A stretch of 64,000 bases of DNA from Candidatus Firestoneibacteriota bacterium (GTDB lineage Bacteria > Oederibacteriota > D2-FULL-39-29 > CAIOVX01). The stretch covers positions 100,504 through 164,503 of the forward strand of contig CAIOVX010000060.1 in the NCBI GenBank assembly GCA_903861835.1, written 5' to 3'. Positions 1-32,503 of the stretch are shown here, one piece after another; the first letter of the stretch is position 1; every line of letters begins with the position of its first letter. Both the position numbers and the translations under genes were made by a program. The notes under the pieces were generated by a model. It was not told the origin of the DNA. It was given only the letters and a program-made list of their open reading frames with translations, and did no database searches.

Positions 1-754
1 GCGCCAACGAAAAGGCCGTGTATTTTAGCGCCTGAATATGCTGCCCCGCGCCCAGGAGATAGGGGTTTGAATTAAAAATACCTGGCTTTTCCCCGGCGTT
101 TCTCAGCAATGCGGAAAGTTCGGCCACAAGTTTTTCGTTTTCCGCAAGGCCCGGGCCTGAACACTTAAATTTCAGGTAGAGAATCCCTGTCCTTCTCTCG
201 AATCTTGCCCGCAGGAACCTGTCGCGGAGCTTAAAAAAAGAAAGTTTGTTAAGTTCCTGATCCTTGACGGTATGCGCCGTAAGGATACTTTCACGCGGAA
301 CCCCTTCGTAGCCGGCAGGTTTGTACAGTTCAAGCAGACACGGTTTGAAACCCTTGGACAGGACGCTCTCTTTATTAAAAATTTGATTATTCACAAAAAG
401 CACGCGCGCGCCCGGAGGCAGCCCGGAGAGCTTTCCGCCTTTTTCATAATCGGCTTTATAAATTATCCCCAGTCCGTTCTTCTTAGCGGCAGTTTCCCCG
501 TCAGACCTGTCCGAAGAATCGACTATCACGGAAGTGAGTCCGGCATTCCTTAGCGCGGCAAGCTCAGCGTCCGTATTTTTCCCTAGGGCGCCGGAGAGTT
601 CTCTAATCTCTAAATAGGCGGCTGCCAGGTCAAAGGTCGTCAGTTCCCGCTCCACCCTGACCCGGCCTGCTGAAACAATAATAGCCCAAATGAGCGCGGC
701 AGCCAGGCAGACCAAACCGGTTATCAGAAGCGCTTTTTCGGTTCTTTTTTCCAT
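1..754 (-). CDS. Hypothetical membrane-anchored protein, 3' truncated by the window edge. It has an N-terminal TM helix, LITGLVCLAAALIWAIIVSAG.
   Basis: Minus strand reads ATG at 754..752, then a stop-free frame continuous to position 1. The 3' end of PAP2 overlaps it by 31 nt. Not in the ORF track because no stop lies in the window. No family recognised. Confidence 0.45.
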   Translation of the reverse strand, partial: MEKRTEKALLITGLVCLAAALIWAIIVSAGRVRVERELTTFDLAAAYLEIRELSGALGKNTDAELAALRNAGLTSVIVDSSDRSDGETAAKKNGLGIIYKADYEKGGKLSGLPPGARVLFVNNQIFNKESVLSKGFKPCLLELYKPAGYEGVPRESILTAHTVKDQELNKLSFFKLRDRFLRARFERRTGILYLKFKCSGPGLAENEKLVAELSALLRNAGEKPGIFNSNPYLLGAGQHIQALKYTAFSLA

Positions 755-1278
755 TCAAAATTCCTATAGAAAAAGACAGTGAGGAACCCGATGGCCGCGC
801 CTATTGCCGCGCCGCCGAACACATCCAGCGGATAATGGACTCCGCAGTAAACTCTTGAAAAGGATATAAGAAACGCGAGCCCAAGAAACCAGACCCCGGC
901 TTTTCTGTTAAAGAATGTAACCACAGTTGCCGCGGCGAAAGTGTTTGCCGCGTGGTTTGAAGGAAAAGAATATCCGGCCGCCCCCGCCAACTGCAGAACG
1001 TGCGGAATGGATTCGAACGGACGTATCCTTTCGAAGAAGGGTTTCAGTATCCTGTAACAGAACGCGTCGGTCAGTGCTACCGCAACAATACAGAGCGTCA
1101 CCGTTATTTTAGTTTTTTTTCCGCCTTTTACCAGGAGGTAGAGGGCAAGAAGCGCGAGCGGAGGCAGCCAGATCCACTGATTTGTCAGCGTCTGCATTAT
1201 CACATCGAGCACGGGATTGTGCAAACGATTGTTCACAAAATAGAAAATTGCGCGGTCTATTCCCGTAAGAAACTCCAT
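724..1278 (-). CDS. PAP2 family phosphatase (phosphatidic acid / undecaprenyl-diphosphate phosphatase-like)
   Basis: PAP2 motifs KPFFERIRP, PSNH and SRVYCGVHYPLD. ORF track starts at TTG 1290. ATG 1278 (MEFLTG) has GGAGGG upstream. Confidence 0.8.
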   Translation of the reverse strand: MEFLTGIDRAIFYFVNNRLHNPVLDVIMQTLTNQWIWLPPLALLALYLLVKGGKKTKITVTLCIVAVALTDAFCYRILKPFFERIRPFESIPHVLQLAGAAGYSFPSNHAANTFAAATVVTFFNRKAGVWFLGLAFLISFSRVYCGVHYPLDVFGGAAIGAAIGFLTVFFYRNFEWKKEPKKRF

Positions 1279-1298
1279 AAATTTAACCAATCGCCCTC

Positions 1299-1431
1299 CA
1301 GTTTAGATGCTTGGATGTTTGGATGATTAGACGCTGGCACAAAACATCTTCCTATCCTGAACCTATTGTGAGGCAGAGGTTTTGACCTTGCTTTTGAGCG
1401 TCCAACCTTCCAACCCTCTAAGCATCCAACT
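1299..1431. repeat. Family A interspersed intergenic element, full copy R1, about 133 bp
   Basis: About 80-85% identical to 10556..10694 by eye. The 5' end carries TTGGATG octamer repeats and the 3' end carries CATCCAAC repeats that are inverted to them. It sits between the asmA stop and the PAP2 RBS. Confidence 0.75.
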
Positions 1432-4008
1432 TCACTTACCGAACAGTCCCTTCAGCAAATCAACGCCCTTCTTCTTCAACCCTTCCCCTTCTTCCTGCAG
1501 TTTCTTCTTTGCCGCGTTCTCAGCGTTTTTACCGGCGTTGGCAAGGGATCTGTCCATGTTTGGGCTGAAAGAAGGTGCCGCAAGCCGCCCGAAAACATCA
1601 AAATCAACAGGTACCCAGCCGTCCGGCCCGGCGGAATATTTTCCCGCGTCCCCCAGTTTTGAAGAAATTGAAGGAGAAAAATCATTCCTGACGGGAAGCT
1701 GCAGTTCTGAATCCAGGTCCCGGTCAAAACCCACCCAGCCGCCTGACCCGAAATTATACCTCGCGTCATCGCAGACGACCTTCATTTCGTCAATATTAAC
1801 CTTCTGCCCGCCTATCCTGGTCCTGCCGGTCAGCTGCCTGAAGGGTATCTCTCCGGAAGGATTGACTCCGAGAGCCTTGAACCCGTCGCTGAGCGCCTGC
1901 CAATTCTTAAGTTTGCCGTCAACAAGTTTAAAGTTCAAAGAGCCTACGAGATTCTGCTTAACTTCCTTTTTGTTGGCGCCCCTGCCGGAAAAGTTGAAAT
2001 CGGAAACGGCTGCTCCCGCCACCTTGTTCTTCACCACACCTGACATCCAGCCTTCGAGAAAAGAATCAGCCGCGTCATTGACAAAATCGCCTGTCTGCAC
2101 CCCAGAGAGCGTGCCGGCAATAGAATACCCGATACCGGGGATATTCAGGTCAATCTTCGCAGCCGTCTTCACCGTTCCTCCGTATCCGTTCATGGAAGCC
2201 TTTATATCCGCCGCTCTCTTCGCGAGTTTTACATTGGAAACAATGTCTGTGAATTTTATCTTCTTAAATGCTATTTCCTTGATGTTCAGGTCGGCTTCAG
2301 CCGAAAGTTTTCCGTAAACATATCCCGTATACGCCTTTATCTCCTCGTCGGTAAAACCTGAGTCCGCGGGAACGGCCGTTCCGGGCGCGGCAGCCGTCTT
2401 TGTCTTCGCGGGAAGCGCGTCCCAGACTTCGTCCACCAGGAACTTTTGGCACGAAAGCCCCGCCTTGATATCCCCCTCGAACTTTGTCTTCCAGTCGGAC
2501 ATCGTCTCCAGGTTAAAATTAGAAGCGGTTACATATCCGGAGAACGCGGAGGTCCCTGCAAGAAAGCTGATATCCGGCAGCCGCAGCTGCTTTTCCGTAA
2601 GCAACAGGGAAGAGTTTAGTTTTGAGACACCGTACTTTACCCCGCCGTACATAAAGCCGAGGCCCGCGAGCATTCCCGAACCATTGATTTTTATTCCCTT
2701 ATAATTAACCGAATAATCTTTTGTTATGGGAATGAACATTTTGATATCCACGGAAGCAGAGCCTTCGGTTTTCATATCGCTCATTTGCGGGAGCATTGAG
2801 ACCAGTTCCTGCACTGACAGGTTTCCGGAGACCGCCACATTGACCTTCGGCGCTCCGAATATTTCAGTAATGGACTTATCTGCCTTAAAAACTGACGCGC
2901 CCGTCTCTATGTTCGAGACCGCGCGGACCGCGTCCCTCTTAACATCAAAATCAAAAGAGATCTTCGTCTTAAGACCTTTGGGTTTTGTGAACAAATCGGA
3001 GTACTTCGCTTCAACCTGGGAAAGATCCGCGTTCCCCGAACCGGACGCGTAAATATCATAGGCTTTTCCGGATTGGCGCGCTTCCCCTTTTACCGAAAGA
3101 TCAAAAGAAGCAGTGCCGGAGAGAAGGACATCTTTCATATAGGCTGCCATAACCGCAGGGAGCATAGGGGAAACTGTATTTTTAAGCTCACCGCAATCCG
3201 CGGCAACCTTTGCCTGCAGAGAAAACGCAGGGGATTCCAGGAACTTTTTCACCTCGCCTGTGGCGGTAAAGGCAAGACCCGGAAGTCTTGCCGTGAAATC
3301 CCGCAAGTACACTTCCTGCTCGTCAAACTTCACCTGCATGCTTCCTTCGGCCGACAGATTAACAGGCGCCTTGTTGTATTCCATTACGGCGGACGCTTTA
3401 ATTTTGAAAGGCTTGTCCCCTTCAAGCGACAGGCCGGTTACCGACACATTTAGTTCTTTGATTCCCGCTTTGACGGCAGGAACAGCGGAGTAATCGCTGT
3501 AGCCTATCTCACCTGAGTTTATCACGAACTTTGACATGGAAAGCTTGACCGGGAGTTTCCCGGAGGCGTTTTGACCGGGTTCAGCCGCGAGGTGAGCAAC
3601 CTTCGTCCCATTCGCCAGGTCGGCAAAATTGTACTCGCCTTTTTTGTTCTTCTCTATTAATATCTTCGGAGAGTCAAGTTCAACGGTGGTGAGGTTGACT
3701 TTTCCGAGCAGCAATGGCAGGAACTCGTACCCCGCCGAAGCCTGTTCCGCCGCGATGAAAGCCCCTGAAGTAAAACCCTCTCCGTTTCTGTTGCCTATAT
3801 AGAAACCTTTGATTCCGATGCCTTTGAAAATATTAAAATCCAGCTTCTCTATGCGGACCTCCCGGTTCAACTGCTTTGAAGCTTCGGCCGCGGCAGCATC
3901 TTTGACTTTATCCCAGGGAACAAAAAAAGCGAGCGCCGCGCCGAGAAGAAGGAGAAGCAGTACCAGTATTCCAGCGGTCAGGGCGAGAATTTTTGCTGTT
4001 TTTTTCAT
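1432..4008 (-). CDS. AsmA-family (AsmA/TamB-like) outer-membrane assembly protein
   Basis: 858 aa. N-terminal signal-anchor MKKTAKILALTAGILVLLLLLLGAALAFFVPWD, then a long beta-rich domain. ATG at 4008 is preceded by GGAGGAG. Confidence 0.65.
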   Translation of the reverse strand: MKKTAKILALTAGILVLLLLLLGAALAFFVPWDKVKDAAAAEASKQLNREVRIEKLDFNIFKGIGIKGFYIGNRNGEGFTSGAFIAAEQASAGYEFLPLLLGKVNLTTVELDSPKILIEKNKKGEYNFADLANGTKVAHLAAEPGQNASGKLPVKLSMSKFVINSGEIGYSDYSAVPAVKAGIKELNVSVTGLSLEGDKPFKIKASAVMEYNKAPVNLSAEGSMQVKFDEQEVYLRDFTARLPGLAFTATGEVKKFLESPAFSLQAKVAADCGELKNTVSPMLPAVMAAYMKDVLLSGTASFDLSVKGEARQSGKAYDIYASGSGNADLSQVEAKYSDLFTKPKGLKTKISFDFDVKRDAVRAVSNIETGASVFKADKSITEIFGAPKVNVAVSGNLSVQELVSMLPQMSDMKTEGSASVDIKMFIPITKDYSVNYKGIKINGSGMLAGLGFMYGGVKYGVSKLNSSLLLTEKQLRLPDISFLAGTSAFSGYVTASNFNLETMSDWKTKFEGDIKAGLSCQKFLVDEVWDALPAKTKTAAAPGTAVPADSGFTDEEIKAYTGYVYGKLSAEADLNIKEIAFKKIKFTDIVSNVKLAKRAADIKASMNGYGGTVKTAAKIDLNIPGIGYSIAGTLSGVQTGDFVNDAADSFLEGWMSGVVKNKVAGAAVSDFNFSGRGANKKEVKQNLVGSLNFKLVDGKLKNWQALSDGFKALGVNPSGEIPFRQLTGRTRIGGQKVNIDEMKVVCDDARYNFGSGGWVGFDRDLDSELQLPVRNDFSPSISSKLGDAGKYSAGPDGWVPVDFDVFGRLAAPSFSPNMDRSLANAGKNAENAAKKKLQEEGEGLKKKGVDLLKGLFGK

Positions 4009-4108
4009 GGTTCTCCTCCGGAATGCTTGACGTGACAACATTATAACCTTCTGGAGGTAAAAATCAAAGGATAAAGAAACCGGCGCTCAGATCTCAAACC
4101 TTCCCGCA

Positions 4109-4138
4109 TTGACAGGCGCTCTTTTAATATAGTATACT
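4109..4138 (+). promoter_or_regulatory. Sigma70-like promoter TTGACA-18-TATACT for the outer-membrane barrel gene
   Basis: TTGACA at 4109..4114 and TATACT at 4133..4138. AGGAG SD lies before ATG 4184. Confidence 0.5.
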
Positions 4139-4183
4139 CCACTAATGTAAATTTTTTTCAGTCCTCATTGAGCTAGGAGCAAA

Positions 4184-5176
4184 ATGAAGAGCCGCAAGTT
4201 GTTCCTTACCGCTCTACTGCTACTGATGATTTCTTCAGCCTGCACGGCCGGTTCCGGTACCTCAGCCCTCACCTTTCTCCGCATAGCGCCCTCGGCTCGG
4301 GCGGCAGGCATGGGAGAAACCTTCACAGCCGTCGCGGACGATGTTAACGCCTCCTACTGGAATCCCGCCGGCATCGCGAACCTTGACACCATGCAGCTTT
4401 CTTTTATGCACATGTTCTACTGGGATTCAAGTTCTTACGAGTATCTTGCTTTTACCGCTCCTCTCACCGACAGAATAAAACTCGGAGCTCACCTTGCCTA
4501 CCTTAATTACGGCTCTATGGATAAAACACTGGCGGGCGACAGCACAGTCGTGGGAAGTTTCAGCCCTTTTGATCTGGTGCTTGCCGGAACTGTGGCGTAC
4601 AAACTGAGCAGCGCGCTTCAGGCAGGCGTAAACATCAAACTGGCAATGCAGACTATAGATACTGATTCTGTTTCAGCCCTGGCCTTTGACGGCGGGCTGC
4701 TTTATGAAATGCCTTTTTTCCTTGAGAGCCTCGGCGGCCATGACTTTGTCCTGGGAGCCGCAATAAGCAACCTCGGAGGGGCGGTAAACGGCGACAACCT
4801 GCCGCTTACCCTGCGAGGGGGCTTCTCGGCAAAATTTAGCGTGCAGTCTGAAAATGACCTGCTGGTGGCGGCAACGGCCTACTACCCCTTCGACTCAGGG
4901 ACACTCTGCGAAAATTTGGGCGCGGAATTCTCAGTTGAGAAAGAATTCGTCCTTAGGGCAGGCTACAAGTTTGGTTACGACGCGGGAAGCCTTACGGCAG
5001 GACTTGGCTACAAGGGAACGCTTCCCGGAATATTTGCTTTTACGGTTGATTACGCGTACGCGCCTTCCGGAAATCTGGGTGACACGCACAGGGTCTCTCT
5101 CGGACTGGTTTTTGAACAGGAATACAGGGCCGGAAGATCCGGGCCAGGCGTAAAGATAGCGCCAAGACGTTTTTAA
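4184..5176 (+). CDS. Outer-membrane beta-barrel protein, FadL/PorV-like
   Basis: Signal peptide plus an N-terminal motif ARAAGMGETFTAVADDVNASYWNPAGIA, resembling the FadL/TodX/PorV-type motif. Alternating beta-strand pattern. C-terminal aromatic residue. Confidence 0.55.
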   Translation: MKSRKLFLTALLLLMISSACTAGSGTSALTFLRIAPSARAAGMGETFTAVADDVNASYWNPAGIANLDTMQLSFMHMFYWDSSSYEYLAFTAPLTDRIKLGAHLAYLNYGSMDKTLAGDSTVVGSFSPFDLVLAGTVAYKLSSALQAGVNIKLAMQTIDTDSVSALAFDGGLLYEMPFFLESLGGHDFVLGAAISNLGGAVNGDNLPLTLRGGFSAKFSVQSENDLLVAATAYYPFDSGTLCENLGAEFSVEKEFVLRAGYKFGYDAGSLTAGLGYKGTLPGIFAFTVDYAYAPSGNLGDTHRVSLGLVFEQEYRAGRSGPGVKIAPRRF

Positions 5177-5215
5177 TAAGCCTGCAGGACTGAAAGCCCG
5201 GCCACCCATTTTTGC

Positions 5216-5244
5216 TTGACTGTTTTCACGCCCGCTTATATAAT
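5216..5244 (+). promoter_or_regulatory. Consensus sigma70 promoter TTGACT-17-TATAAT
   Basis: TTGACT at 5216..5221 and TATAAT at 5239..5244. ATG 5254 is only about 10 nt after the -10, so the mRNA is leaderless or nearly so. Confidence 0.6.
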
Positions 5245-5253
5245 CAAAGCACT

Positions 5254-6546
5254 ATGAAAACACTATTCCTTGCGCTGCTCGCCGGCTATATCATCTTTCG
5301 CTCTTTTATGATTTATCTCTCTCATAAGGGCCGAAAAACAGCCTCCAATGAAACCCTGGCGCTTAAATACTTCACGCCTGAAGAGATTAAAAATGGCGAA
5401 GAGTACGCGAGAAAAAGCTTCGGCCTCAGCGTTTTGCAGAGGGCGGTTGACTTCCTCTTCCCGTTTGTTTTCTTTTTCCTGGCGGCTAAACCGCTGTCAT
5501 GGACGCTTCATGAAGTTCTTAAGGGGATGGGGATACATATTGTAACCCTGCAAGTCCTGATATTCCTGGCGGTCTACTTCCTCTGCTCTTTCATTATTAT
5601 GCTCCCCTTCCGCTTTCACTTCGGCTACACCCTTGAACACAAGTTCGGCTTCTCCAATATGACAAAAAAAGAATGGTTCCTTTATTCTTTCAAACAATTC
5701 GCCGTCGGGACCGTGATAACCGCGATTATTGTTTGCGCCGCCTACTATATATTCAGAAGACCCACAATTTACCTCTGGCTCATACCGGTAGTCCTGCTGG
5801 CCTTTGAATTTATCATTACTTTCCTGTATCCTTACCTGATACTGCCTCTCTTTTACAAAAAGTCCAGGTTTAAAGATGAAAATTACGCGAGACCGATGCG
5901 CGAGGTAGCCGAGAAAGCCGGCGTAAAGGTAAACAAAATATTCCAGATAAACGAGAGCAAGTATTCAAAACACACAAACGCGTTTTTCACGGGGTTTGGC
6001 CCTGAAAAATCCATCTATATTTTCGACACGCTCATAAAGACAAACACGCCGGAGCAGGTTGCCTCCGTCGTGGCACACGAGATAGGACACTGGAAAAACA
6101 ACCACGTCCTGAAGAATATATTTCTTTCCTTTGCCGGCTCAGTGCTTATGACCTGGATAGTTTATTTTACTTATAGCGCGATCTGTTGTTATACTGGCTC
6201 TGACTACCCACATTTCAGCCTGTTAGACGGCAGCGCATTGACTATGAGTATTTCAGATATTGGCGGCTTGCCTTTAATTTCCGCAATACTGACAATATTC
6301 TCCTTCTGGCTGGCCCCGATAGAAAATATTGTCAGCAGAAAGTTTGAGGTAACAGCCGACACCTATGAGATTGGTATGGGCGGCCATCCTGAAATCTACA
6401 TAAAGAGCATGGTACAGCTGGCAAAGGACAACAGGTCCTTCCTTTTCCCGCACCCGCTGGTCACCTTCTGGTACGCCTCCCACCCGCCTATACTGGAAAG
6501 GGTTAAACTTGGAGAGAGCTACGAAAAGAACCAGAGGACAAAGTAA
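5254..6546 (+). CDS. M48 family zinc metalloprotease (Ste24/HtpX-like)
   Basis: HEIGHW zinc motif and multiple TM helices. Start MKTLFLALL. Confidence 0.8.
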   Translation: MKTLFLALLAGYIIFRSFMIYLSHKGRKTASNETLALKYFTPEEIKNGEEYARKSFGLSVLQRAVDFLFPFVFFFLAAKPLSWTLHEVLKGMGIHIVTLQVLIFLAVYFLCSFIIMLPFRFHFGYTLEHKFGFSNMTKKEWFLYSFKQFAVGTVITAIIVCAAYYIFRRPTIYLWLIPVVLLAFEFIITFLYPYLILPLFYKKSRFKDENYARPMREVAEKAGVKVNKIFQINESKYSKHTNAFFTGFGPEKSIYIFDTLIKTNTPEQVASVVAHEIGHWKNNHVLKNIFLSFAGSVLMTWIVYFTYSAICCYTGSDYPHFSLLDGSALTMSISDIGGLPLISAILTIFSFWLAPIENIVSRKFEVTADTYEIGMGGHPEIYIKSMVQLAKDNRSFLFPHPLVTFWYASHPPILERVKLGESYEKNQRTK

Positions 6547-6785
6547 TGAGAGTACTCTTTTTCTTCATCGGCGGCGCTATAGCCGCCTTTCTTGTCTGCA
6601 AGTTCTTCGTCCTGAGCGGTTCTGAACTCGAAACTCTCGGGGCATTCTGGAACAACCTCGGCACCGAGAAACCGCAGAATGTCGAGACCCTGGTAAAATC
6701 AGGCGCATTTTTGAAACTCATTGTGGGGATGGCTCTCGGCGGGTTCCTCGGAGCGCTCTTCAGCAATGTTTTCGGAAACGATTAA
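6546..6785 (+). CDS. Small hypothetical membrane protein, 79 aa with 2 TM helices
   Basis: GAGGA SD 8 nt upstream. Its ATG overlaps the M48 stop. Hydrophobic segments present. Confidence 0.4.
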   Translation: MRVLFFFIGGAIAAFLVCKFFVLSGSELETLGAFWNNLGTEKPQNVETLVKSGAFLKLIVGMALGGFLGALFSNVFGND

Positions 6786-6801
6786 GGACCAAGGACGGCA
6801 A

Positions 6802-7911
6802 ATGTTAAAAACCATACGAGTTAAATTAAACACTTCTTCCAACCGTTCCTATTCAATAATAATAGGGCGCGGCATACTGGGAGCCGCGGGCAAAGCCCTA
6901 AAAAAACTCGGAGTTGGCAAGGATCTTTTCCTGATTACCGATTCCAATGTCAACCGGTTGTACGGAAGAGCGGTGCTTAGCAGTTTCAAGCGGGCCGGCT
7001 TTAAAGGCACCGGCAAGTCTGTCATCAAAGCAGGGGAACCGAGCAAATCCCTTGCCTCTTTCGCTAAAATTCAAAATGCTCTGTATGGGTTTGACAGGAG
7101 CGGTGACCGGCAGATAACAATAGCGACGCTCGGCGGCGGTGTTCCCGGAGACCTCGGCGGCTTTGTCGCCGGCACCTACAAGCGCGGTGTGAGCTTCATT
7201 CAGATACCTACCACCTTGCTTGGATTCGTGGACTGCGGGCTTGGCGGAAAGACCGCGGTAAACTTCAGGGAAGCAAAGAATTCCATAGGCATCTTTTGGC
7301 AGCCGAAAATGGTGTATATGGATTTAGAGGCTCTAAAGACCCTGCCGCTCCGTGAACTAAAATCGGGACTGGCTGAAACCTTAAAGTACGGCGTGATAAG
7401 CGACCCGCGGCTCTTTGATTACCTTGAGTTCAATTCCGACAGATTACTTGCTCTCGATATGGCGGTTTATGAAAAGATTATTCCGGCCTGCGTTAAAATA
7501 AAGGCGGATGTTACTTCTGCTGACGAGCGGGATGAGAAAGATATCCGCATAATGCTTAACTTCGGGCATACCGCCGGGCACGCGATAGAAGCGGCGACAA
7601 ATTACAAAAAATACACCCATGGCGAAGCAATAGCTCTCGGTATGCTCATCGCGGGGCAGATAGCAAAAGAACTCGGTCTATTTAAAGAAGCTGACCTCTT
7701 CCGCCTTGAAAATCTCACCGAAAACCTGGGCCTGCCGGTAAAACTCTCCGGCTGCAAAGTGAGTTCTGTACTAAATGCTATGAAGCATGACAAGAAGTTC
7801 AAATCAGGAGTGAACCGCTTCATACTCCCGGTCAAAATAGGCTCCTGCAAAGTCGTCAACAACATCCCTGAAAAAGTAATCGCAAAAGCAATCAAATCCA
7901 GAATGGCTTAG
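6802..7911 (+). CDS. aroB: 3-dehydroquinate synthase
   Basis: DHQS motifs GGGVPGDLGGFVA and HTAGHAIE. ATG 6802 follows an AAGGA SD. The ORF-track start at 6721 overlaps the previous gene. Confidence 0.85.
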   Translation: MLKTIRVKLNTSSNRSYSIIIGRGILGAAGKALKKLGVGKDLFLITDSNVNRLYGRAVLSSFKRAGFKGTGKSVIKAGEPSKSLASFAKIQNALYGFDRSGDRQITIATLGGGVPGDLGGFVAGTYKRGVSFIQIPTTLLGFVDCGLGGKTAVNFREAKNSIGIFWQPKMVYMDLEALKTLPLRELKSGLAETLKYGVISDPRLFDYLEFNSDRLLALDMAVYEKIIPACVKIKADVTSADERDEKDIRIMLNFGHTAGHAIEAATNYKKYTHGEAIALGMLIAGQIAKELGLFKEADLFRLENLTENLGLPVKLSGCKVSSVLNAMKHDKKFKSGVNRFILPVKIGSCKVVNNIPEKVIAKAIKSRMA

Positions 7912-7924
7912 TTAATCACCCCCG

Positions 7925-7954
7925 ACAATGAAAAAGGGCGGCTTTCGCCGCCCT
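7925..7954 (+). terminator. Rho-independent terminator after aroB
   Basis: Stem AGGGCGGC/GCCGCCCT, loop TTTC, then TCGTTTTCTT. Confidence 0.7.
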
Positions 7955-8031
7955 TCGTTTTCTTGCTATTTTGTCAGTCAACTGTCCTCTGCCTTCCGTC
8001 TTCCGAACTGCTGCGCCTTCGCACCTCTCAT

Positions 8032-8772
8032 TTAATACGCGTAAAGCCGCCCGTAAGGTCTATGCGAAAATGGATATAGTTTTATAAAATGCGCCTTCAA
8101 TATCTCTTCTGCTTTAAGTTTCGGAAAATATGAACAGTAATCCCTCACGTATTTCTCAAGCAAAACCCTGTCTTTTTCGTCCAGTTCGACCGCCTTTACT
8201 TCCTTGCCAAGCAGCCTCGGGTCTATAGTTTTCGTCCTGATAAAGATTGTGCCTCCGTGCATTCCGGTTCCTACGAAATCCCCCACAGGCAGCTTATCTG
8301 TGCCAAGGCCCAGGACTATCGCCAGCCCTCCGGCCATATATTCTCCGAAGAAATCCTTTACTTCCTCTCCTATTATTACGACCGGAAAGTTTTCTTCGAA
8401 GGCCTTCATATGTATGCCCACGCGGTAGCCCGCGTTTCCGCGGATATAGATCTTCCCGCCTCTCATCGAATAGCCGACGATATCGCCCGCGTTTCCGTGG
8501 ACGACAATGAGCCCGCTGTTCATAGTATTGCCGATGGCGTCCTGCGCGTTCCCGTGAACGATTATCTCGGGCCCGTTCATAAAAGCTGCCATATCGTTCC
8601 CCGGCACGCCGTTTATGACAAACTTGACCTTCTTGCTGACCGCGTCGCCGATGTACCTTTGCCCCATGGCGTTGTTTATAACAATCTCGTCAGCGTCCGC
8701 GAGAACCGCGTGAATCTTCTCATTTAAATCCCTATAATGCAGTTTGTCGGCGTCTATTGTTATCTTCTTCAT
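8032..8772 (-). CDS. Glutamate synthase C-terminal GXGXG beta-helix domain subunit, archaeal-type GltB3
   Basis: Repeated VHGNAGD, IRGNAG and VINGVPGND units. ATGA start/stop overlap with the upstream gene. Confidence 0.75.
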   Translation of the reverse strand: MKKITIDADKLHYRDLNEKIHAVLADADEIVINNAMGQRYIGDAVSKKVKFVINGVPGNDMAAFMNGPEIIVHGNAQDAIGNTMNSGLIVVHGNAGDIVGYSMRGGKIYIRGNAGYRVGIHMKAFEENFPVVIIGEEVKDFFGEYMAGGLAIVLGLGTDKLPVGDFVGTGMHGGTIFIRTKTIDPRLLGKEVKAVELDEKDRVLLEKYVRDYCSYFPKLKAEEILKAHFIKLYPFSHRPYGRLYAY

Positions 8773-10043
8773 ACTTCAGTACCCTCTCCGGTCACAAAGT
8801 GTTTCCTGAAATCCGTAGGAAGCAGCAGGAAACCGAAATCATCAGTCAGCAATTCTTTCTTCAGCGCCAATACATCCAGTTTTTCCTTTATCAAAAGGCC
8901 GTAGATGCCTGCGCGCTCTATACAGTTGACGAGTATCACGCCCACCAGCCTGTTATCCTTTACGACTATTTTCTTGTACTTTCCTTCACCGCTCTTTTTA
9001 ACAACCTCATAGCCGTCCTCTTTGGGGTTGGTTATCCCGAACGAGATTGAAGGCACTCCGAGTATTTCCACAGAGTTCATCGCGAAGCTTCCGCCAAACA
9101 CATCCTTCGCTCCGGACATATTATGCCCGGCCACTTTTCCCTGCTTAGCGGCGGTCGGCCAGATCGCGATAACCGCGCCCTTTCCGGAGAGGAATTCCAG
9201 CCCTTCGGCGCAGTCTCCCGCGGAAAAAACACCCGGCACATTCGTTTCCATCCTGGCGTCAACGACAATGCCTCGGTTTACCGCTATCGGCGTGCCTTTG
9301 GCGAGAGAAACCTCCGGGCGCACGCCCACAGCCATAATCAGCAGTTTCGCTTTCAGCTTCTTTCCGTTGCTTAGGACCAGCTCTTCTATTTTGCCGGCCT
9401 TTGAAACTACCTTCTTTATGGTGGTCTCTTTAAGAAACTCGCAGCCGTTCTCTTTCAATTTTTCTTCAATGATGGCTGAAGCTTCTCTGTCGAACGTATT
9501 GGCAAGCAGACGGTCGGCGATATCAAGAATCTTGAACTTCATCTTCTTGCCGAGCAGGGCTTCGGCGGCCTTCATACCGATAAGCCCGCCGCCGAGAATC
9601 ACGGCTTCTTTTACCTTGTTCTTCTCTATGTATTTTTCTATCTCTTTCGCATCGGCTAATTTTGTAAATGTGAACACTCCCGAAAGATTATCTTTCAGAC
9701 CGTCTACAGGAATCTTTATCGGTGTTCCGCCCGAGCAGATAAGCAGCCGGTCATAGGGCAGTTTCTTTTTGTTATTGATTTCGACATGGCGGCTTTTCGT
9801 CTCTATCTTCACCGCTTCGGTGTTATAAAGCACTTTCACGCCCATATCTTTCTCGAAATCCGTCGAGGTAAAACCGATCTTATCCTTGCTAAGCTTGCCC
9901 GCAAGGTAGTACGAGATCAGGGGGCGCGAGTAGAGCCGGTCCTCGTTGCTAATGACCGTAATCTCTCCTGTTTTGTCCGATTCCCTTATGGCGGTTATGG
10001 CGTTTACAGCAGCCACGGAATAACCCACTATCACATATTTCAT
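8769..10043 (-). CDS. FAD/NAD(P)-dependent oxidoreductase, NADH:ferredoxin (rubredoxin/putidaredoxin) reductase-like
   Basis: N-terminal VIVGYSVAAVNA dinucleotide fold, LYSRPLISYYL motif, a second GGGLIGMKAA fold, and no redox-active Cys42. GGGAGA SD present. Confidence 0.7.
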   Translation of the reverse strand: MKYVIVGYSVAAVNAITAIRESDKTGEITVISNEDRLYSRPLISYYLAGKLSKDKIGFTSTDFEKDMGVKVLYNTEAVKIETKSRHVEINNKKKLPYDRLLICSGGTPIKIPVDGLKDNLSGVFTFTKLADAKEIEKYIEKNKVKEAVILGGGLIGMKAAEALLGKKMKFKILDIADRLLANTFDREASAIIEEKLKENGCEFLKETTIKKVVSKAGKIEELVLSNGKKLKAKLLIMAVGVRPEVSLAKGTPIAVNRGIVVDARMETNVPGVFSAGDCAEGLEFLSGKGAVIAIWPTAAKQGKVAGHNMSGAKDVFGGSFAMNSVEILGVPSISFGITNPKEDGYEVVKKSGEGKYKKIVVKDNRLVGVILVNCIERAGIYGLLIKEKLDVLALKKELLTDDFGFLLLPTDFRKHFVTGEGTEV

Positions 10044-10065
10044 AAGCTTCTCCCGTTAACAGTTC

Positions 10066-10506
10066 TTACTTTTTCATTTTTATTGCTTCGTTGGGGCAGT
10101 GCTCCACGCAGGCCGGTGTTTCGCGGTCTCCGCAAAGGTCGCATTTTGAAGCCACTCTCTTATTCTTCAAGTCCGGCTTAATGACTCCAAAAGGACAAAC
10201 CATTATACACATCCAGCAGCCGACGCATTTATCCTTGTCGTGAAGGACCGTTGCTTCCTTGTCCTTGTACATAGCCGAGGTAAGACAGGCCTCGATGCAA
10301 GGCGCGTCGTGACAGTGCCTGCACTGCAGGGCGAAGGTGGTATAACCGCATTTTTCGAAAGCAATGCAGGAATCCGTAAGCGGCTTGAAACCTTCGGACT
10401 TGAAGGTCTTGATTATGTCCTTGGATTTCGAGTGCGCGGTAACGCAGTGCACTTCACAGAGCCTGCACCCTAGACAGTATTCTTCATTTATCACTATTCT
10501 TTTCAT
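10066..10506 (-). CDS. Polyferredoxin with several 4Fe-4S clusters
   Basis: Several CxxCxxCxxxCP motifs. Upstream is a GGGGGAAAGAGG SD. Confidence 0.8.
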   Translation of the reverse strand: MKRIVINEEYCLGCRLCEVHCVTAHSKSKDIIKTFKSEGFKPLTDSCIAFEKCGYTTFALQCRHCHDAPCIEACLTSAMYKDKEATVLHDKDKCVGCWMCIMVCPFGVIKPDLKNKRVASKCDLCGDRETPACVEHCPNEAIKMKK

Positions 10507-10555
10507 ATTCGCCTCTTTCCCCCTGGTTTTCAGTGCCTTCCCGCTAAAAACTCTC

Positions 10556-10694
10556 TTCTTTGATGCTTGGACGGTTGGATGTTTAGATGATTAGACGTTG
10601 GAATAAAACATCTTTCCATCCGGATCCTTTTGAGGTAGAGGTTTTGACCTTGCTTTTAAGCATCCAACCCTCTAACCTTCCAACCATCCAACAA
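10556..10694. repeat. Family A interspersed intergenic element, full copy R2
   Basis: Homologous to 1299..1431 in the same orientation. It starts 1-2 nt after the gltB2 stop and ends about 50 nt before the ferredoxin ATG. Confidence 0.75.
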
Positions 10695-12188
10695 CTACCA
10701 GGCTTCGCCTGCGTGCTTAATATCCAAAAGCCTGAGCTCAAGCTCGGTAAGGTCCACACCGCGAAGCTGCGCGCGGTTGCCGCGGAGAGATTCAAGCGCG
10801 TTTATACCCATTCCGCCGAGCATTTCTTTTATTTCAAGAGACCACGCCCGAAGAAGATTAAAAGCCCTCGTAGCGCCCACATCCGGATTCAACCTCTTCT
10901 TCAGGTTTGGATCCTGGGTCGCGATACCCCAGTTACATTTTCCCGTGTAGCATTTCTGGCAGAGATGACAGCCGAGGGAAATAAGCGCCGAGCTTCCAAT
11001 GTAGCACGCGTCAGCTCCCAGCGCTATCGCCTTAATAATGTCTCCGGAATTTCTGAAACCGCCGGCGGCGATGACTGAAGCCCTCTGGCGTATTCCTTCT
11101 TCCCGAAGCCTCGTGTCAACCGAAGCAAGCGCGAGCTCTATCGGAATACCTACATTATCCCTAATCACAGTCGGAGCGGCTCCGGTGCCGCCTCTGATAC
11201 CGTCTATCACAACAAAATCCGCTCCTGCCCTTACAAGACCTGAAGCTATAGGGGCAATATTATGAACGGCGGCAATTTTCACGCCCACCGGTTTTGAATA
11301 TCTGGTTGCTTCTTTAAGCGCAAAGATCAGCTGTTTCAAATCTTCGATTGAGTAAATATCATGGTGGGGCGCAGGTGAAATGGCGTCCGACCCGACAGGA
11401 ATCAATCTGGTTCTGGAAACTTCCTCATCAACTTTTTCTCCCGGAAGATGCCCGCCGATGCCGGGTTTCGCGCCCTGCCCGACCTTTATCTCAATGGCCG
11501 CCGCAGAATTCAGGTATTCGGTGTCTACTCCGAACCTGCCTGAAGCTACCTGAACGATCACATTCTTGGCGTAGGGTTTTAGGTCACGGTGCAAACCGCC
11601 CTCGCCGGTATTCCAGTAGGTGCCGTATTCCGTCGCCGCTTTCGCGAGCGATTTCTGGGCATTCAAGGATATCGACCCGTAGCTCATCGCGGAAAACATT
11701 ATCGGGGTTGTAAGTTTTAACTGGGTGGAAATCTTCTGCTTGGGTTCGAACTTATCGGGTTTGCTGCCTATGAAGGTTGTGAGTTCCATCGGCTCGCGGA
11801 GCGGGTCAATGGAAGGATTTGTGACCTGTGAAGCGTTAAGCAATATATGATCGAAATATTCTTTGTATTCCTTATCGCTTCCCATACCGGTAAGGAGTAT
11901 TCCGCCGGTTTCGGCCTGTTTTATAATGCCGTAAACATCCCCCGCCTTCCAGTGGGCATTCTCCTTTATCTCCGGAGCGCTCTGCACTATGGTAATAGCC
12001 GAGGTCGGGCAGATATCCTCGCAGAAATGGCAGCCGACGCAATTCCCGTCGCAGGAAGAGAGGGTATTGCTCTCCTCGTCATAAAGATGCGCGTCGTTGC
12101 TGCACATGCGGACACAGGCCTGGCACTTTATGCACTTATCCGGGTCCCTGTTTATTTTGAAATTTCCCCTGAATTTAGACTTTGCCAT
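10695..12188 (-). CDS. Glutamate synthase FMN-binding subunit with an N-terminal 2x[4Fe-4S] ferredoxin domain, archaeal-type GltB2
   Basis: CIKCQACVRMC...CVGCHFCEDICP, then the GOGAT FMN/TIM-barrel region including GGTGAAP. Confidence 0.85.
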   Translation of the reverse strand: MAKSKFRGNFKINRDPDKCIKCQACVRMCSNDAHLYDEESNTLSSCDGNCVGCHFCEDICPTSAITIVQSAPEIKENAHWKAGDVYGIIKQAETGGILLTGMGSDKEYKEYFDHILLNASQVTNPSIDPLREPMELTTFIGSKPDKFEPKQKISTQLKLTTPIMFSAMSYGSISLNAQKSLAKAATEYGTYWNTGEGGLHRDLKPYAKNVIVQVASGRFGVDTEYLNSAAAIEIKVGQGAKPGIGGHLPGEKVDEEVSRTRLIPVGSDAISPAPHHDIYSIEDLKQLIFALKEATRYSKPVGVKIAAVHNIAPIASGLVRAGADFVVIDGIRGGTGAAPTVIRDNVGIPIELALASVDTRLREEGIRQRASVIAAGGFRNSGDIIKAIALGADACYIGSSALISLGCHLCQKCYTGKCNWGIATQDPNLKKRLNPDVGATRAFNLLRAWSLEIKEMLGGMGINALESLRGNRAQLRGVDLTELELRLLDIKHAGEAW

Positions 12189-12215
12189 TTTAATCCTCTT
12201 TTCCGCAATTAGCGT

Positions 12216-12252
12216 CTTTTACTTTATAAACCTTATGAACTTTATAAACTTT
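12216..12252 (-). promoter_or_regulatory. Family C motif AAAGTTTATAAAGTTCATAAGGTTTATAAAGTAAAAG
   Basis: Overlaps the gltB1 stop codon and ends about 30 nt before the gltB2 ATG. Homologous copies lie at 36421..36454, 20155..20200 and 20307..20350. Confidence 0.4.
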
Positions 12253-13360
12253 TTGTTTTTGTAAACACCCCTATCACCGGCTTCCCCGCGTCAGGCATCC
12301 AGATGCGGTCAAGCACGGGGCTGACCGTGCGGATGGAGGCTTCTTCCGAAGCAATAAATAATTTCGACCCCTTCTCCCCGCAGACCAGAGGCCTAAGTTT
12401 GGTCCTGTCGTTTAAGCCAAGCATCATATTGCCGTCTGAAACTATTATCGCGAACGGCCCGTTCAAGAGCGCCGGCGCATAGATCATACGCATTCTGGTG
12501 TGCAGCTCCTTTTCTTCCGGGCTCATCCGGTCTATCTGAGACCAGAAGGGAGCAGCTATGGCCTTGCAGGCGTACTCATAGGAGAGCCTGTGCTTCCTGA
12601 CCAGCAAGTCAAAAAGATAAGCAATAACTTCCGTGTCGGTAAAGAGCGTGCAATAATATCCGAAGTTCTCAAGATACCTTCTGTTTATACCGTAGGAGGA
12701 AATCTCTCCGTTGTGCACCACGGTCCAGTTTAGCAGACCGAAGGGATGCGCCCCGCCCCACCACGCCACGGAGTTGGTAGGAAACCTGTTATGCGCAGTC
12801 CAGATATTGGCCTTGTAATCCGGTATCTTGAAAAATTCCGCTATTTCATCGGGGTTGCCGACGCCCTTAAACGCGCCCATATTCTTGCCGGAGGAGAAGA
12901 TAAAAGCTTCTTTTACCGTGCGGTTGAGCTCAAAAGCTTTTTCAGCGGTGTATTCGTCTTCAATTTCTTTCTTTGAGAAATCTTCAAGGAAGATGAGTTT
13001 CTCTTCTTTAGGCTTAAGGAAATACCTCTTCAGTATCGGAGGAGTTTTAAGGGTCTTTACAAACTTGGTCGGTATAGGTTCCGCGAGCCGGATATCAAAG
13101 TTCTTCTTCAGGAAAGCTTCCGATTCTTCAACAGCCGCTTCTCTGCCGAACATCATATGGAAACAATAGTAGTCCGCATGCTCGGGATAGATACCGTAAG
13201 CCGCGTAGCCGGAACCGAGACCGTTACCCCTCTCCATCATATTGCAGATAGAAGCAACGATATCCCCGCCGGAAAACACCGCGCCGCTTCTATCCATAAT
13301 ACCGGTTACGCCGCAGCCAGAAGGTATCTTATGAAGCCTGTCATCTAAAGGTCTTAACAT
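12242..13360 (-). CDS. Class II (Ntn) glutamine amidotransferase subunit, archaeal-type GltB1
   Basis: GATase-II features include an N-terminal propeptide before CGVTGI. ATG at 13360 with AGGAGA SD. The ORF track extends to TTG 13381. Confidence 0.8.
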   Translation of the reverse strand: MLRPLDDRLHKIPSGCGVTGIMDRSGAVFSGGDIVASICNMMERGNGLGSGYAAYGIYPEHADYYCFHMMFGREAAVEESEAFLKKNFDIRLAEPIPTKFVKTLKTPPILKRYFLKPKEEKLIFLEDFSKKEIEDEYTAEKAFELNRTVKEAFIFSSGKNMGAFKGVGNPDEIAEFFKIPDYKANIWTAHNRFPTNSVAWWGGAHPFGLLNWTVVHNGEISSYGINRRYLENFGYYCTLFTDTEVIAYLFDLLVRKHRLSYEYACKAIAAPFWSQIDRMSPEEKELHTRMRMIYAPALLNGPFAIIVSDGNMMLGLNDRTKLRPLVCGEKGSKLFIASEEASIRTVSPVLDRIWMPDAGKPVIGVFTKTKSL

Positions 13361-18063: not shown

Positions 18064-18072
18064 AGCAGACTG

Positions 18073-18168
18073 ATTGCGCAGATTAGAAAAAGAGATTACG
18101 CGGATTAAAGCAGCTAAGCCGTATAATCTCTTTCCCTACAAGGTCTTTCTGATTCAACCTGCGCAATC
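18073..18168. terminator. Bidirectional terminator hairpin between convergent glmM and nagB
   Basis: Inner 13-bp stem 18091..18103 pairs with 18119..18131. T-runs on both strands. Outer 10-bp inverted repeat GATTGCGCAG/CTGCGCAATC. Confidence 0.5.
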
Positions 18169-18187
18169 TAATTCCAAAACCGTCTAA

Positions 18188-20130: not shown

Positions 20131-20154
20131 AGGGCTCCTTCATAAAATGCTTAG

Positions 20155-20350
20155 AAAGTTTGTAACGTTTATAAGGTTTATAACGTTCTTAACGTAAAAC
20201 TGATAAACACAAAATTCTAAACTCTAAGAAATTACCTGCTTCTTTACTTTTTGCTTAGGATTTATCGCTTTGTGATTACACTCTGGTCTTGTTTTCTTCT
20301 CTCTGGCTTTACGTTACAAACGTTAAGAACGTTACGAACGTTATAAACCG
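20155..20350. repeat. Composite about 196 bp element with about 40 bp terminal inverted repeats built from AACGTT / GTTTATAAMGT units (family C), enclosing family B heptamers
   Basis: 20155..20200 is the reverse complement of 20307..20350 with mismatches. TTCTAAACTCTAAG lies at 20215..20228. The element abuts the recN stop and ends 25 nt before the iscS ATG. Confidence 0.5.
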
Positions 20351-28922: not shown

Positions 28923-30176
28923 TTATATCTCCACGGGAAACTTATTGCAGAGTACCTTGACCTTCTTCCTGACTCCGGCCGCTACCTTGGCGCTCGTCGG
29001 GTGATTGAGTATGTCTGCTATCATTTCGGCAATCGCGAGGCACTGATCTTCCTTCATACCGCGCGTCGTAAGAGCCGGAGTTCCCAGTCTGACCCCGCTC
29101 GTTTCAAAAGCTTTCAGCGGATCAAAAGGTATCCTGTTCTTATTCGCAGTGATGCCTGCCTTATCCATGGCCAGCGCGGCTTCCCTTCCGGTAAGCTGCT
29201 TATTCCGAAGATCCACCAGCATCAGGTGATTGTCAGTCCCGCCTGTTACCAGATTGAACCCGTTCTTTGACAGGTAATCTGCTATCACTTTGGCGTTTTT
29301 TACTATCTGCTTCTGGTATTCCCTGAACTCAGGCTGTAGAGCTTCTTTGAACGCAACGGCCTTTGCGGCGACAACATGCATCAGCGGACCGCCCTGTATG
29401 CCGGGGAAGACAGCCGAGTCTACTTTCTTCATCCATTCGCTCTTGCAGAGAATAAAGCCGCCCCTCGGGCCCCTTAAGGTCTTATGAGTCGTGCCGCCTA
29501 TGAAATCGCAATAAGGCACCGGGTCAGGGTGAACCTTCCCTACTATTAGCCCCGCAATGTGAGCTATGTCGGCCATAAAGAGAGCTCCGACTTCTTTTGC
29601 TATGTCGTGGAATTTTTTGAAATCTATTTGCCTGGGGTAAGCGCTTGCCCCTGCTATCAGCAGTTTCGGTTTATGCTTTTTTGCAAGGTTCCTAATGGCT
29701 TCATAATCCAGCAGATTAGTATACTCGCTTACTCCGTAAGAAACTGCCTTGAAGAACTTCCCTGAGAAACTCACCGAAGCTCCGTGAGTCAGATGTCCTC
29801 CGGAGGCAAGATCCATGCCCATAATGGTATCGCCGGGATTCAGGCAGGAAAGATATATTGCCATATTAGCCTGTGAACCGGCGTGAGGCTGAACATTGGC
29901 GTGCTCTGCACCAAACATTTTCTTTAGCCTGCTGATGGCCTCCGCTTCCACTTTGTCAAGATATTCGCAGCCCTGGTAAAACCTTTTCTCCGGGTAACCT
30001 TCAGCGTATTTGTTAGTAAGGACGGAACCTTGCAAAGCCATTACGGCTTTACTCGTATAGTTTTCTGAGGCAATCATTTGGAGTTTGGTGTCTTGTCTCT
30101 TAAACTCCTCGTTCACCAGCTTAGCTATCTTTTTGTCTTCCTTCTGAAGGAAGTTCTCAAAATACCCTCTGTACAT
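28923..30176 (-). CDS. glyA: Serine hydroxymethyltransferase
   Basis: SHMT along the whole length, including the PLP-Lys region [15 protein letters not shown] 30176 with GAGGAG SD. The ORF-track start at 30263 would be 29 codons further upstream, reading through family A copy R3. Confidence 0.9.
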
Positions 30177-30190
30177 ATAAGCTCCTCTAA

Positions 30191-30264
30191 ACAGATGCTC
30201 GGAAGTTCGGATGCCCGGAGGGTTGGACGCTGCACTTAAGCATCCGCGCATCTGACCCTCCAAC
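30191..30264. repeat. Family A element, internally deleted short copy R3, about 74 bp
   Basis: Shares both end modules with R1 and R2: AGATGCTCGGAAGTTCGGATG at the 5' end and TTAAGCATCC...CCCTCCAACC at the 3' end. Same orientation. Runs from the rpiB stop to the glyA SD. Confidence 0.55.
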
Positions 30265-30720: not shown

Positions 30721-30769
30721 CCTTGTTCCTACCGCGCTTACCGAACCTCTGACCATCCAAGCATCCGCC
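30721..30769. repeat. Family A element fragment R4, solo end module
   Basis: The minus strand reads GGCGGATGCTTGGATGGTCAGAGGTTCGG directly after the PTP stop codon. This is homologous to the first about 30 nt of R1 and R2. Confidence 0.4.
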
Positions 30770-32366: not shown

Positions 32367-32475
32367 AACCACCCCTTATTGCATAACGATAGAAGCATTG
32401 CGAATAAACTCTTGATAATTAGTATAACAGAAGGCGTCTGGAATTTTCAAGGAATAAGGAAAACCAAAGAACAAA

Positions 32476-32503
32476 TTCTAAACTCTAAATACTAAACAAA
32501 AAA
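32476..32503. repeat. Family B tandem heptamers TTCTAAA-CTCTAAA-TACTAAA-CAAAAAA
   Basis: Three to four 7-nt direct repeats about 110 nt upstream of the purE ATG. Related arrays lie at 20215..20228 and 46886..46913. Confidence 0.4.

Follow-up and report, generated by a model that had tools for sequence, protein, structure and literature searches.

What kind of element recurs in the spacers between co-directional genes of an uncultivated bacterium, folds as a hairpin and matches no family in Rfam? We have addressed this question for a 64,000-nucleotide (nt) stretch of a Candidatus Firestoneibacteriota genome (contig CAIOVX010000060.1, positions 100,504 to 164,503; hereafter the window), which carries two copies of an interspersed intergenic element, Family A, at 1300-1431 (copy 1) and 10562-10694 (copy 2). 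In NCBI records, the homologues of the proteins flanking these copies are named as Candidatus Firestonebacteria. A preliminary description of the window had likened the build of Family A to that of miniature inverted-repeat transposable elements (MITEs). The reading that we favour, with about even confidence, is that Family A is a composite, co-transcribed RNA hairpin module of the intercistronic spaces of Candidatus Firestonebacteria, similar to STRRs, the short tandemly repeated repetitive elements of cyanobacteria, and to repetitive extragenic palindromic (REP) sequences, and that it turns over by slippage and by recombination between loci.

Anatomy, gene setting and folding of Family A

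The two look-alike copies are where they had been reported, and their likeness falls within the 80-85% first estimated: a blastn search of the window with copy 1 recovered copy 2 in an alignment of 128 nt with 82.8% identity (E=9e-33), and a MAFFT alignment of the two gave 81%. Furthermore, the 20-mer GAGGTTTTGACCTTGCTTTT occurs exactly twice in the 64 kb, against an expectation of 0.01. Both copies had been located properly, but when the limits were refined by reading the sequence directly, the original starts at 1299 and 10556 proved to lie too far out, by 1 and 6 nt respectively. The tandem octamers at the ends, inverted with respect to each other, are also real. Tandem Repeats Finder reported period-8 arrays at both ends of both copies, and the end-unit patterns TTGGATGNTTGGATG and CCAACCYTCYAACC matched 12 and 8 times, compared with 0.4 and 1.2 matches expected from shuffles.

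Since the neighbouring genes are all on the minus strand, this strand was taken as the sense strand. Read in that direction, a stop codon is followed by four tandem octamers of the form NNN-RGANG, a core of about 65 nt, and four to five inverted octamers of the form CNTCY-NNN, which precede the ribosome-binding site (RBS) of the next gene. The 5' and 3' arrays are mutually inverse, and the outer stem is formed by their pairing. Within the core, the sense-strand 21-mer AAAAGCAAGGTCAAAACCTCT is invariant across all four independent Family A copies, including those in relatives.

Copy 1 occupies the whole gap between the TGA (1432-1434) of an AsmA-family gene (858-869 aa) and the Shine-Dalgarno sequence GGAGGG (1294-1299) of a PAP2 phosphatase gene. 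Its 5' arm (1399-1431; octamers GTTGGATG CTTAGAGG GTTGGAAG GTTGGACG) begins 1 nt past the stop codon, its core (1334-1398) holds the invariant 21-mer at plus-strand positions 1375-1395, and its 3' arm (1300-1333; inverted octamers CGTCTAAT CATCCAAA CATCCAAG CATCTAAA) abuts the Shine-Dalgarno sequence. Copy 2 lies between the gene for the FMN subunit of an archaeal-type split glutamate synthase (TAG, 10695-10697) and a 4Fe-4S ferredoxin gene of the same cluster (start 10504-10506). Here, the 5' arm (10661-10694; GTTGGATG GTTGGAAG GTTAGAGG GTTGGATG) begins 2 nt past the stop codon and is followed by the core (10598-10660, with the 21-mer at plus-strand 10637-10657) and the 3' arm (10562-10597; CGTCTAAT CATCTAAA CATCCAAC CGTCCAAG CATC). 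Copy 2 ends 55 nt before the ferredoxin start codon, and the ordinary spacer between them (10507-10561), which is conserved in sister species, carries the ferredoxin RBS. Thus, both copies share one orientation and are wedged between a minus-strand stop codon and the next RBS, as had been described.

Scans of the two elements detected nothing promoter-like in them and nothing terminator-like within their hairpins; the sole terminator-like match (10699-10711) is at the end of the gene upstream of copy 2, with a tail that extends to the first octamer. Read-through within operons is therefore the simplest reading. The spacers are flanked by functional partners, namely glutamate synthase subunits and, at two further loci described below, korA/korB and rpiB/glyA. 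As previously noted, there is no sign of a transposase in the window: none was detected among the 50 of 60 open reading frames (ORFs) scanned with Pfam and NCBIfam, which comprised housekeeping genes and one XerC/D-type recombinase. The latter is a tyrosine recombinase (48650-49507, minus strand) that adjoins topoisomerase I and DprA, a housekeeping context rather than that of a mobile element.

On the gene strand, the predicted minimum free energy of the spacer is -51.8 kcal/mol for copy 1 (z=-4.2) and -55.8 kcal/mol for copy 2 (z=-3.1), which bears out the expectation that the whole element can fold as a long imperfect hairpin. The paired arrays form a stem of about 30 bp that is interrupted by a purine-purine mismatch about once per octamer. 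In the RNAalifold consensus of four copies there are 42 pairs, with 96% of the cells paired, compared with 31-48% when slid. The two strands of the element are not equivalent. At the fourth, variable position of the pentamer, both arms have mostly a purine on the sense strand (70% and 89%), which is incompatible with a strand-symmetric palindrome (p=6e-8). A strand-neutral register, in which the arms were aligned by Watson-Crick pairs only, was applied to nine elements and yielded 210 Watson-Crick pairs (in copies 1 and 2 at 26 of 36 and 26 of 37 positions). In this register, G.U exceeded A.C (29 vs 14, p=0.03) and purine-purine exceeded pyrimidine-pyrimidine oppositions (64 vs 18, p=3e-7), the latter in nine of the nine elements.

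The family had not been recognized from the sequence, and it has no counterpart in Rfam. Rfam gave no match across the whole window at gathering threshold and nothing relevant at E<=5 in window positions 1-13000; the korA-korB locus of a relative (L012, see below) was likewise without a match. The searchable literature contains no description of repeats in Firestonebacteria.

Dispersal and replacement in relatives, and a wider class of post-stop arrays

Genome and metagenome collections were scanned with the core 20-mer, one scan each, and loci of relatives (L-numbers) were fetched through core matches and through homologues of the flanking proteins. The exact 20-mer has one match in the metagenome-assembled genome (MAG) of each of two other species, both of them Firestonebacteria, and the metagenomes add only one of these loci again. 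The first, L001, is from the same species as L024 and has Family A at the locus orthologous to that of copy 2. The second, L004, is identical to the metagenome contig L012 and represents a third Family A locus, between korA and korB. The remaining 20-mer matches lie inside unrelated genes or organisms and were dismissed as chance; a match in a viral contig was to the identical contig as one of the chance metagenome matches. A nhmmer profile of the core found no further copy in about 350 kb of fetched DNA, including about 150 kb of other Firestonebacteria DNA. A local duplication, which had been considered at the outset, was rejected, because the same type of core is also present between korA and korB in another species and at the copy-2 site of a third. 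Core identity between non-orthologous loci is 82-86%; as all pairwise values are in this range, the idea of a subfamily, with copy 1 nearer to the korA-korB copy, was abandoned. Family A thus recurs at three or more loci and in three or more Firestonebacteria species, yet it is low-copy, at one to two per genome in the DNA covered, namely the 64-kb window and the two MAGs. The search for additional copies that had been proposed did reveal some in relatives, but not in MITE-like numbers.

At the korA-korB locus (L012, KorA ORF 12-401), the octamer array overlaps the korA stop codon itself, and the C-terminus of KorA (...VGGLEG) is therefore encoded by the array. The length of the 5' array varies between species: four units in the window, seven in L001/L024 and 19 in L004/L012. 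The motif and its 8-nt period are kept between species while the three intervening nucleotides change (for example, GTT in the window vs CGC/GTC in L022). Independent assemblies of the same species have identical arrays (window/L014/L015, L022/L023, L025/L026 and L004/L012), which are therefore not hypervariable on short time scales.

Orthologous sites in the relatives differ in what they hold. At the copy-1 site, between the AsmA and PAP2 genes, the window has Family A, whereas L022/L023 (AsmA 88% identical) have another element of like build, with a short unrelated core between the arms GAGGCGCA GATGCGCG GAGGGTCG... and ...CATCCGCGC GTCCGCGC; L024 (AsmA 82% identical) has yet another element, and L016 (65% identity in the marker oxidoreductase) has no spacer, as its AsmA and PAP2 genes overlap. 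At the copy-2 site, between the glutamate synthase FMN-subunit (gltB) and ferredoxin genes, Family A is present in both the window and L024. The same site has GC-type arms around a short unrelated core in L022/L023, and other elements in L016 and L019 (63-65% identical) that are led by tandem repeats of about 8 nt (L016) or about 7 nt (L019) directly past the stop codon. Finally, the korA-korB site has Family A in L012 and arrays with a different core in L025/L026 (KorB 93% identical). Downstream of the copy-2 site, the roughly 55 nt that include the RBS are plain, conserved spacer in L022 and L024 as well as in the window, so the replaced block is bounded by the stop codon and by ...CRTC/AAAG (the slash marks the boundary). 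Whole cassettes have been replaced at these orthologous sites, which do not show a simple filled-versus-empty pattern. Gene calls put the AsmA-PAP2 spacer at 339 nt in P0123 and at 108 nt in P0125, two more relatives (with AsmA identities of 85% and 78%, respectively), suggesting that cassettes of yet other lengths lie at their copy-1 sites.

Where two species have the element at the same site, it is more similar than its surroundings. Between the window species and L024, third-codon-position identity is 62% in gltB and 69% in the ferredoxin gene, and the plain spacer downstream of copy 2 is 82% identical; for the orthologous copy 2, the figures are 92-93% in the core and 97% in the 3' arm.

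The end units are not specific to Family A, as RGANG-N3 and CNTCY-N3 units are common to elements with other cores or with none. A strict array pattern, at least three successive units of [AGT]GANG-N3, matched seven times in the window, compared with 0.28 times in shuffles, and all seven arrays are in gene spacers: copy 1, copy 2 and a coreless element contribute two arms each, and the seventh is a solo arm. The coreless relative (30192-30264, minus strand) lies between rpiB (stop 30265-30267) and glyA (ATG 30174-30176), and consists of a 5' arm (GTTGGAGG GTCAGATG CGCGGATG), a short loop and a 3' arm (CGTCCAAC CCTCCGGG CATCCGAA CTTCCGAG CATCTG). The solo 5'-type arm (30741-30769, minus strand; GGCGGATG CTTGGATG GTCAGAGG TTCGG), which is without an inverted partner, is upstream of rpiB and directly past the stop codon (30770-30772) of a low-molecular-weight phosphatase gene. 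All eight independent sense-strand RGANG arrays that have a called upstream gene start no more than 7 nt past its stop codon.

This placement extends to arrays of other sequence. Post-stop spacers of at least 44 nt from six Firestonebacteria loci were scored for self-similarity at periods 7-9, with the 99th percentile of coding-sequence controls as the cut-off. Repeats over this cut-off were present in 24 of the 89 Firestonebacteria spacers, compared with none of 34 in unrelated organisms fetched by chance; their units are either 8 nt (RGANG-N3) or 9 nt (GGTTTATAA / ACGTTCTTA). Family A is therefore one family in a lineage-wide habit of placing short tandem repeats past stop codons.

A 9-nt-unit relative at 20131-20350 (minus-strand sense) has the order array, core of about 130 nt and inverted array; the units GGTTTATAAC GTTCGTAAC GTTCTTAAC GTTTGTAAC follow directly on the stop codon, and five inverted units stand just ahead of the next RBS. 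The same unit type also occurs in the window at 12189-12241 and 36390-36443, and the same 9-mers are found past stop codons in L022, L024, L025 and L019. Four more operon spacers with short inverted or tandem units (39260-39436, 46884-47014, 32373-32641 and 18064-18187) probably represent more families of the post-stop class. Examples of their units are AAGCACCAAAT / ATTTGGTGCTT and TTTAGTA/TTTAGAA five times over (two different spacers), as well as TTAGACGG TTTTGGAA TTAGATTG with inverted partners.

In the Ga0209536 metagenome, a repeat (ACATCCCTTCTATGAGGGCCTTGTTGTCAAGCCCTCTTTTGGGGTAAGAGGTTTTGACCTTGCTTTTCACTAT...) at four contig ends (L005 1-60, L008 1-60, L010 3880-4040 and L011 2215-2272) has a 21-nt stretch in common with the Family A core, plus a short ACATC..TTCTAT block. 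It was not counted as a relative: nhmmer covers model positions 3-35 only, no better than evident chance matches, and the contigs have no RGANG arrays. The repeat is possibly the end of an insertion sequence, and its likeness to Family A may well be due to chance.

Proposed role and rival explanations

In the module that we propose, an operon transcript would carry the octamer array 0-7 nt past a stop codon, then the core of about 65 nt, and finally the CNUCY-NNN array just ahead of the RBS, and the foot of the hairpin would join the stop codon of the upstream gene and the RBS of the next. This would place a stable, purine-rich 'punctuation' hairpin in the mRNA, the first stem units of which a terminating ribosome would have to melt in part. 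The hairpin could set the coupling or uncoupling of translation, and mRNA stability or processing, for the two neighbouring cistrons; the model for such a putative role is provided by the hairpins of REP sequences and their mosaic combinations (bacterial interspersed mosaic elements, BIMEs) and of cyanobacterial STRRs. Structure just past a stop codon is reported to correlate negatively with translational coupling (PMC12548453), and the STRR hairpins between the co-transcribed hupS and hupL genes have been suggested to provide either stability of the transcript or coupling of translation (PMC2670836). The evolution of the module would most likely involve slippage within arrays together with recombination or gene conversion between like arrays of different loci, events that would move cores between spacers and replace whole cassettes. 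Transposition fits less well, given the absence of a duplicated target, the small number of copies and the lack of a transposase among the 50 of 60 ORFs scanned.

Several observations weigh against this reading. Co-transcription, a role at the RNA level and the mode of spread are inferred from the sequence. The covariation that had been suggested as a check is not significant with four sequences, as the two compensatory pairs were matched in 84-151 of 500 shuffles. The sense strand folds more stably in seven of seven comparisons, but shuffles indicate that this advantage is largely compositional, with similar z-scores for the two strands, and we have therefore not used it as evidence for an RNA strand. 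Arms pair almost as well with foreign arms as with their own (18.2 vs 19.1 of 24), the two being hard to separate because G.U pairing is permissive, and the Shine-Dalgarno sequence of the next gene is not clearly sequestered in the predicted folds. The sense-strand purine bias may partly reflect a genome-wide purine loading of coding strands, and repeat units are not independent data points; hence, the asymmetry is supportive rather than decisive. Furthermore, the third codon positions of the 150 nt flanking the element are more alike (78% and 72% identical between L024 and the window species), so the high conservation between these two species could stem from a recent transfer or recombination tract rather than from selection.

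Some of these points would be expected if the arrays were a functionless by-product, in which slippage-prone repeats and quasi-palindromes accumulate in the unconstrained space from stop codon to RBS, are homogenized by template switching, and resemble each other between copies and species through recent copying only. The elements fill just this space, flush with stop codon and RBS; their array length differs between species, sequence turnover at orthologous sites is extreme, covariation is not significant, and the slightly raised synonymous identity of the flanks would fit a recombination tract. We nevertheless regard this explanation as unlikely, given a core and 3' arm that are 92-97% identical across species in which synonymous sites are 62-69% identical, and given that the copy-2 site has a spacer led by tandem repeats even in relatives with a marker protein of 63-65% identity. 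It also leaves unaccounted for the constant pentamer and period across species, the consistent purine asymmetry, and arrays that are identical between independent assemblies of a species and hence not hypermutable in the short term. A classical MITE, that is a non-autonomous DNA transposon mobilized by a transposase in trans and tolerated in operon spacers through hairpin folding, as with ERIC, Correia and RUP, seems rather improbable to us. What stands of the earlier MITE comparison are the inverted ends, the length of about 135 bp and a core dispersed over three non-orthologous loci in three species, and it could also draw on the spacerless copy-1 site of L016, the other sequences there in L022 and L024, and the about equal divergence (82-86%) of copies at different loci. 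What does not stand is the expected abundance, with two copies in the window, one exact-core match in each of two species-representative MAGs and none in the roughly 150 kb of other Firestonebacteria DNA. Moreover, no transposase was found among the 50 of 60 window ORFs scanned, and the flanks (TGA/A...C/GGAGGG for copy 1 and TAG/TT...CATC/AAAG for copy 2) have neither a direct repeat indicative of target-site duplication nor terminal nucleotides that are fixed. The termini consist of tandem arrays that vary in length and recur in coreless and other-core elements; the orientation relative to transcription is alike at all three loci and the sense strand is asymmetric; and sister species show whole-cassette replacement rather than filled and empty sites.

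A third possibility is that the array is a set of protein-binding sites, either GGANG motifs in mRNA bound by a GGA-binding regulator of the CsrA/Rsm type or 8-bp-spaced DNA boxes bound by a protein of the ribbon-helix-helix type, with the hairpin masking or exposing the sites. The RGANG motif does bring to mind CsrB, with its CAGGA(U/C/A)G repeats, and the GGA core of Csr/Rsm sites; tandem boxes of 7-9 bp are typical of the MetJ, omega and ParG operators; and from one species to another the motif and its period persist although the 3 nt in between differ. In addition, a GGA-rich 3' untranslated region (UTR) described below gives a faint Rfam match to RsmZ that falls far short of the threshold (E=0.33). 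However, the GGA motifs are in the predicted stem rather than in the loops preferred by CsrA, and no Rfam Csr/Rsm model, such as those of CsrB, RsmY and RsmZ, matches the elements. By tblastn, no csrA was found in the roughly 350 kb of fetched DNA, too small a sample for the absence to be telling. Units of quite another sequence, GGTTTATAA and AATCAGC among them, make up many spacers of this class, and DNA operators would not explain the placement past stop codons. On balance, we think a binding array distinctly improbable.

The co-transcribed hairpin module thus remains the reading that we prefer. A bolder extension of it, which we consider rather doubtful, is that octamer and 9-nt arrays together form a phylum-wide 'operon punctuation' system that is read by a dedicated factor and sets the output of the downstream cistron, with exchangeable cores adding locus-specific control. 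The candidate reader would be a multivalent GGA-binding protein of the CsrA kind, or else the post-termination ribosome acting through repeats that resemble the Shine-Dalgarno sequence or its complement. Two further possible likenesses, neither of them general to the class, were set aside: that of GGUUGGAU to the 3' region of 16S rRNA, and a G-quadruplex like that of the thrombin-binding aptamer in GGTTGG arrays.

The GGA-rich 3' UTR (7912-8031, minus-strand sense) lies 3' of a GXGXG-domain gene. It is purine-rich, with GGA/GAAGG repeats, and ends in a clean intrinsic terminator (GGGCGGCGAAAGCCGCCCTTTTT); the faint PrrB/RsmZ match (7928-8039) scores 20 bits, against a gathering score of 44. 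At the equivalent position, L016 has a full hairpin of AAGTACGG arrays.

Relation to known intergenic repeats

The closest parallel to Family A is found in the STRR sequences, among them STRR1-3, which are built of the heptamers CCCCAGT, TTGGTCA and CAACAGT. We know of no demonstration of a function for short tandem repeats of the STRR type. Like the Firestonebacteria arrays, they are lineage-specific, numerous and unexplained, and consist of short-period (7 bp) tandem repeats in intergenic regions, including that between the co-transcribed hupS and hupL, with the potential to form hairpins (PMC2670836). The elements described here have the corresponding features, namely short tandem intergenic units (period 8), many arrays, spacers between genes of functional partners and hairpin z-scores of -3 to -4. 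Their units of 8 nt (RGANG-N3) or 9 nt, on the other hand, are unrelated in sequence to the cyanobacterial heptamers, and Family A is therefore an analogue of STRRs and not a member. It also differs from them in arrays flush with stop codons, in the cassette of array, core and inverted array, in a conserved unique core, and in a host that belongs to an uncultivated phylum.

The REP, BIME and REPIN (inverted REP doublet) sequences of Enterobacteria and Pseudomonas resemble Family A, as proposed here, in forming hairpins, intercistronic or 3' of genes, that are co-transcribed with operons, and REPINs are inverted doublets of about 100 nt. REP hairpins are known to stabilize upstream mRNA; the work reportedly behind mRNA stabilization, and behind interference with termination within about 15 nt of a stop codon, is that of Newbury in 1987 and of Liang, Rudd and Deutscher in 2015. 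A REP, however, is a palindromic unit of about 35 nt with a conserved GTAG head, present in hundreds of copies and associated with a RAYT transposase, whereas the arms of Family A are tandem octamers, there are one to two copies per family, and no RAYT is known. No unit of the REP/REPIN kind, an imperfect palindrome of about 35 nt with a GTAG head, is present in the two Family A copies. Mycobacterial interspersed repetitive units (MIRUs) also occupy operon spacers, where they run in the direction of the genes, adjoin or overlap the stop and start codons on either side and vary in the number of tandem units. Their units, however, measure 46-101 bp, with a small ORF that is coupled to the flanking genes, as opposed to the 8-nt units here. 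MIRUs are thought to minimize damage to expression through translational coupling (PMC12548453). A coupled small ORF of the MIRU type was rejected for Family A: the short internal ORFs stop 60-75 nt short of the next start codon, they differ between the copies, and they (for example, MLKSKVKTS...) are not conserved beyond the invariant 21-mer.

With ERIC, Correia (NEMIS), RUP and BOX, Family A has in common a size of 100-150 bp, inverted ends, an intergenic position, probable co-transcription and long hairpins. The termini of those MITEs are well-defined inverted repeats, their targets are duplicated (TA for Correia) and their copies number in the tens to hundreds; we saw none of this here. 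Family A does have inverted repeats at its termini, though as octamers that it shares with other elements, and there is polymorphism at the copy-1 site, as replacement rather than as filled versus empty. We class Family A as new within the STRR/REP-like intercistronic repeats, set apart by stop-flush arrays, by a constant pentamer that recurs every 8 nt, by cores that are exchangeable and by a conservation exceeding that of synonymous sites.

Intergenic families such as REP, ERIC, STRR and MIRU are old puzzles. The regular anatomy of the elements described here, an asymmetry that follows transcription, conservation above synonymous sites and the swapping of cassettes make them a tractable case for telling selected RNA devices from self-propagating DNA. 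On a practical level, the elements mislead ORF callers: in addition to the array-encoded C-terminus of KorA in one species, two gene starts in the window have been extended into them. For glyA, the true start is the ATG at 30174-30176 and not the TTG at 30263, from which the mechanical ORF (28923-30263) was called. For the PAP2 gene (ORF 724-1290), the called TTG start (1288-1290) is just 3 nt past the Shine-Dalgarno sequence, and there is an in-frame ATG at 1276-1278. Finally, on the antisense strand of both copies, an AGAGG followed by TTG or ATG, an arrangement of Shine-Dalgarno sequence plus start codon, opens long ORFs of 163 aa (10587-11078, plus strand) and 311 aa (1382-2317, plus strand); these run antisense to the upstream genes and are most likely spurious.

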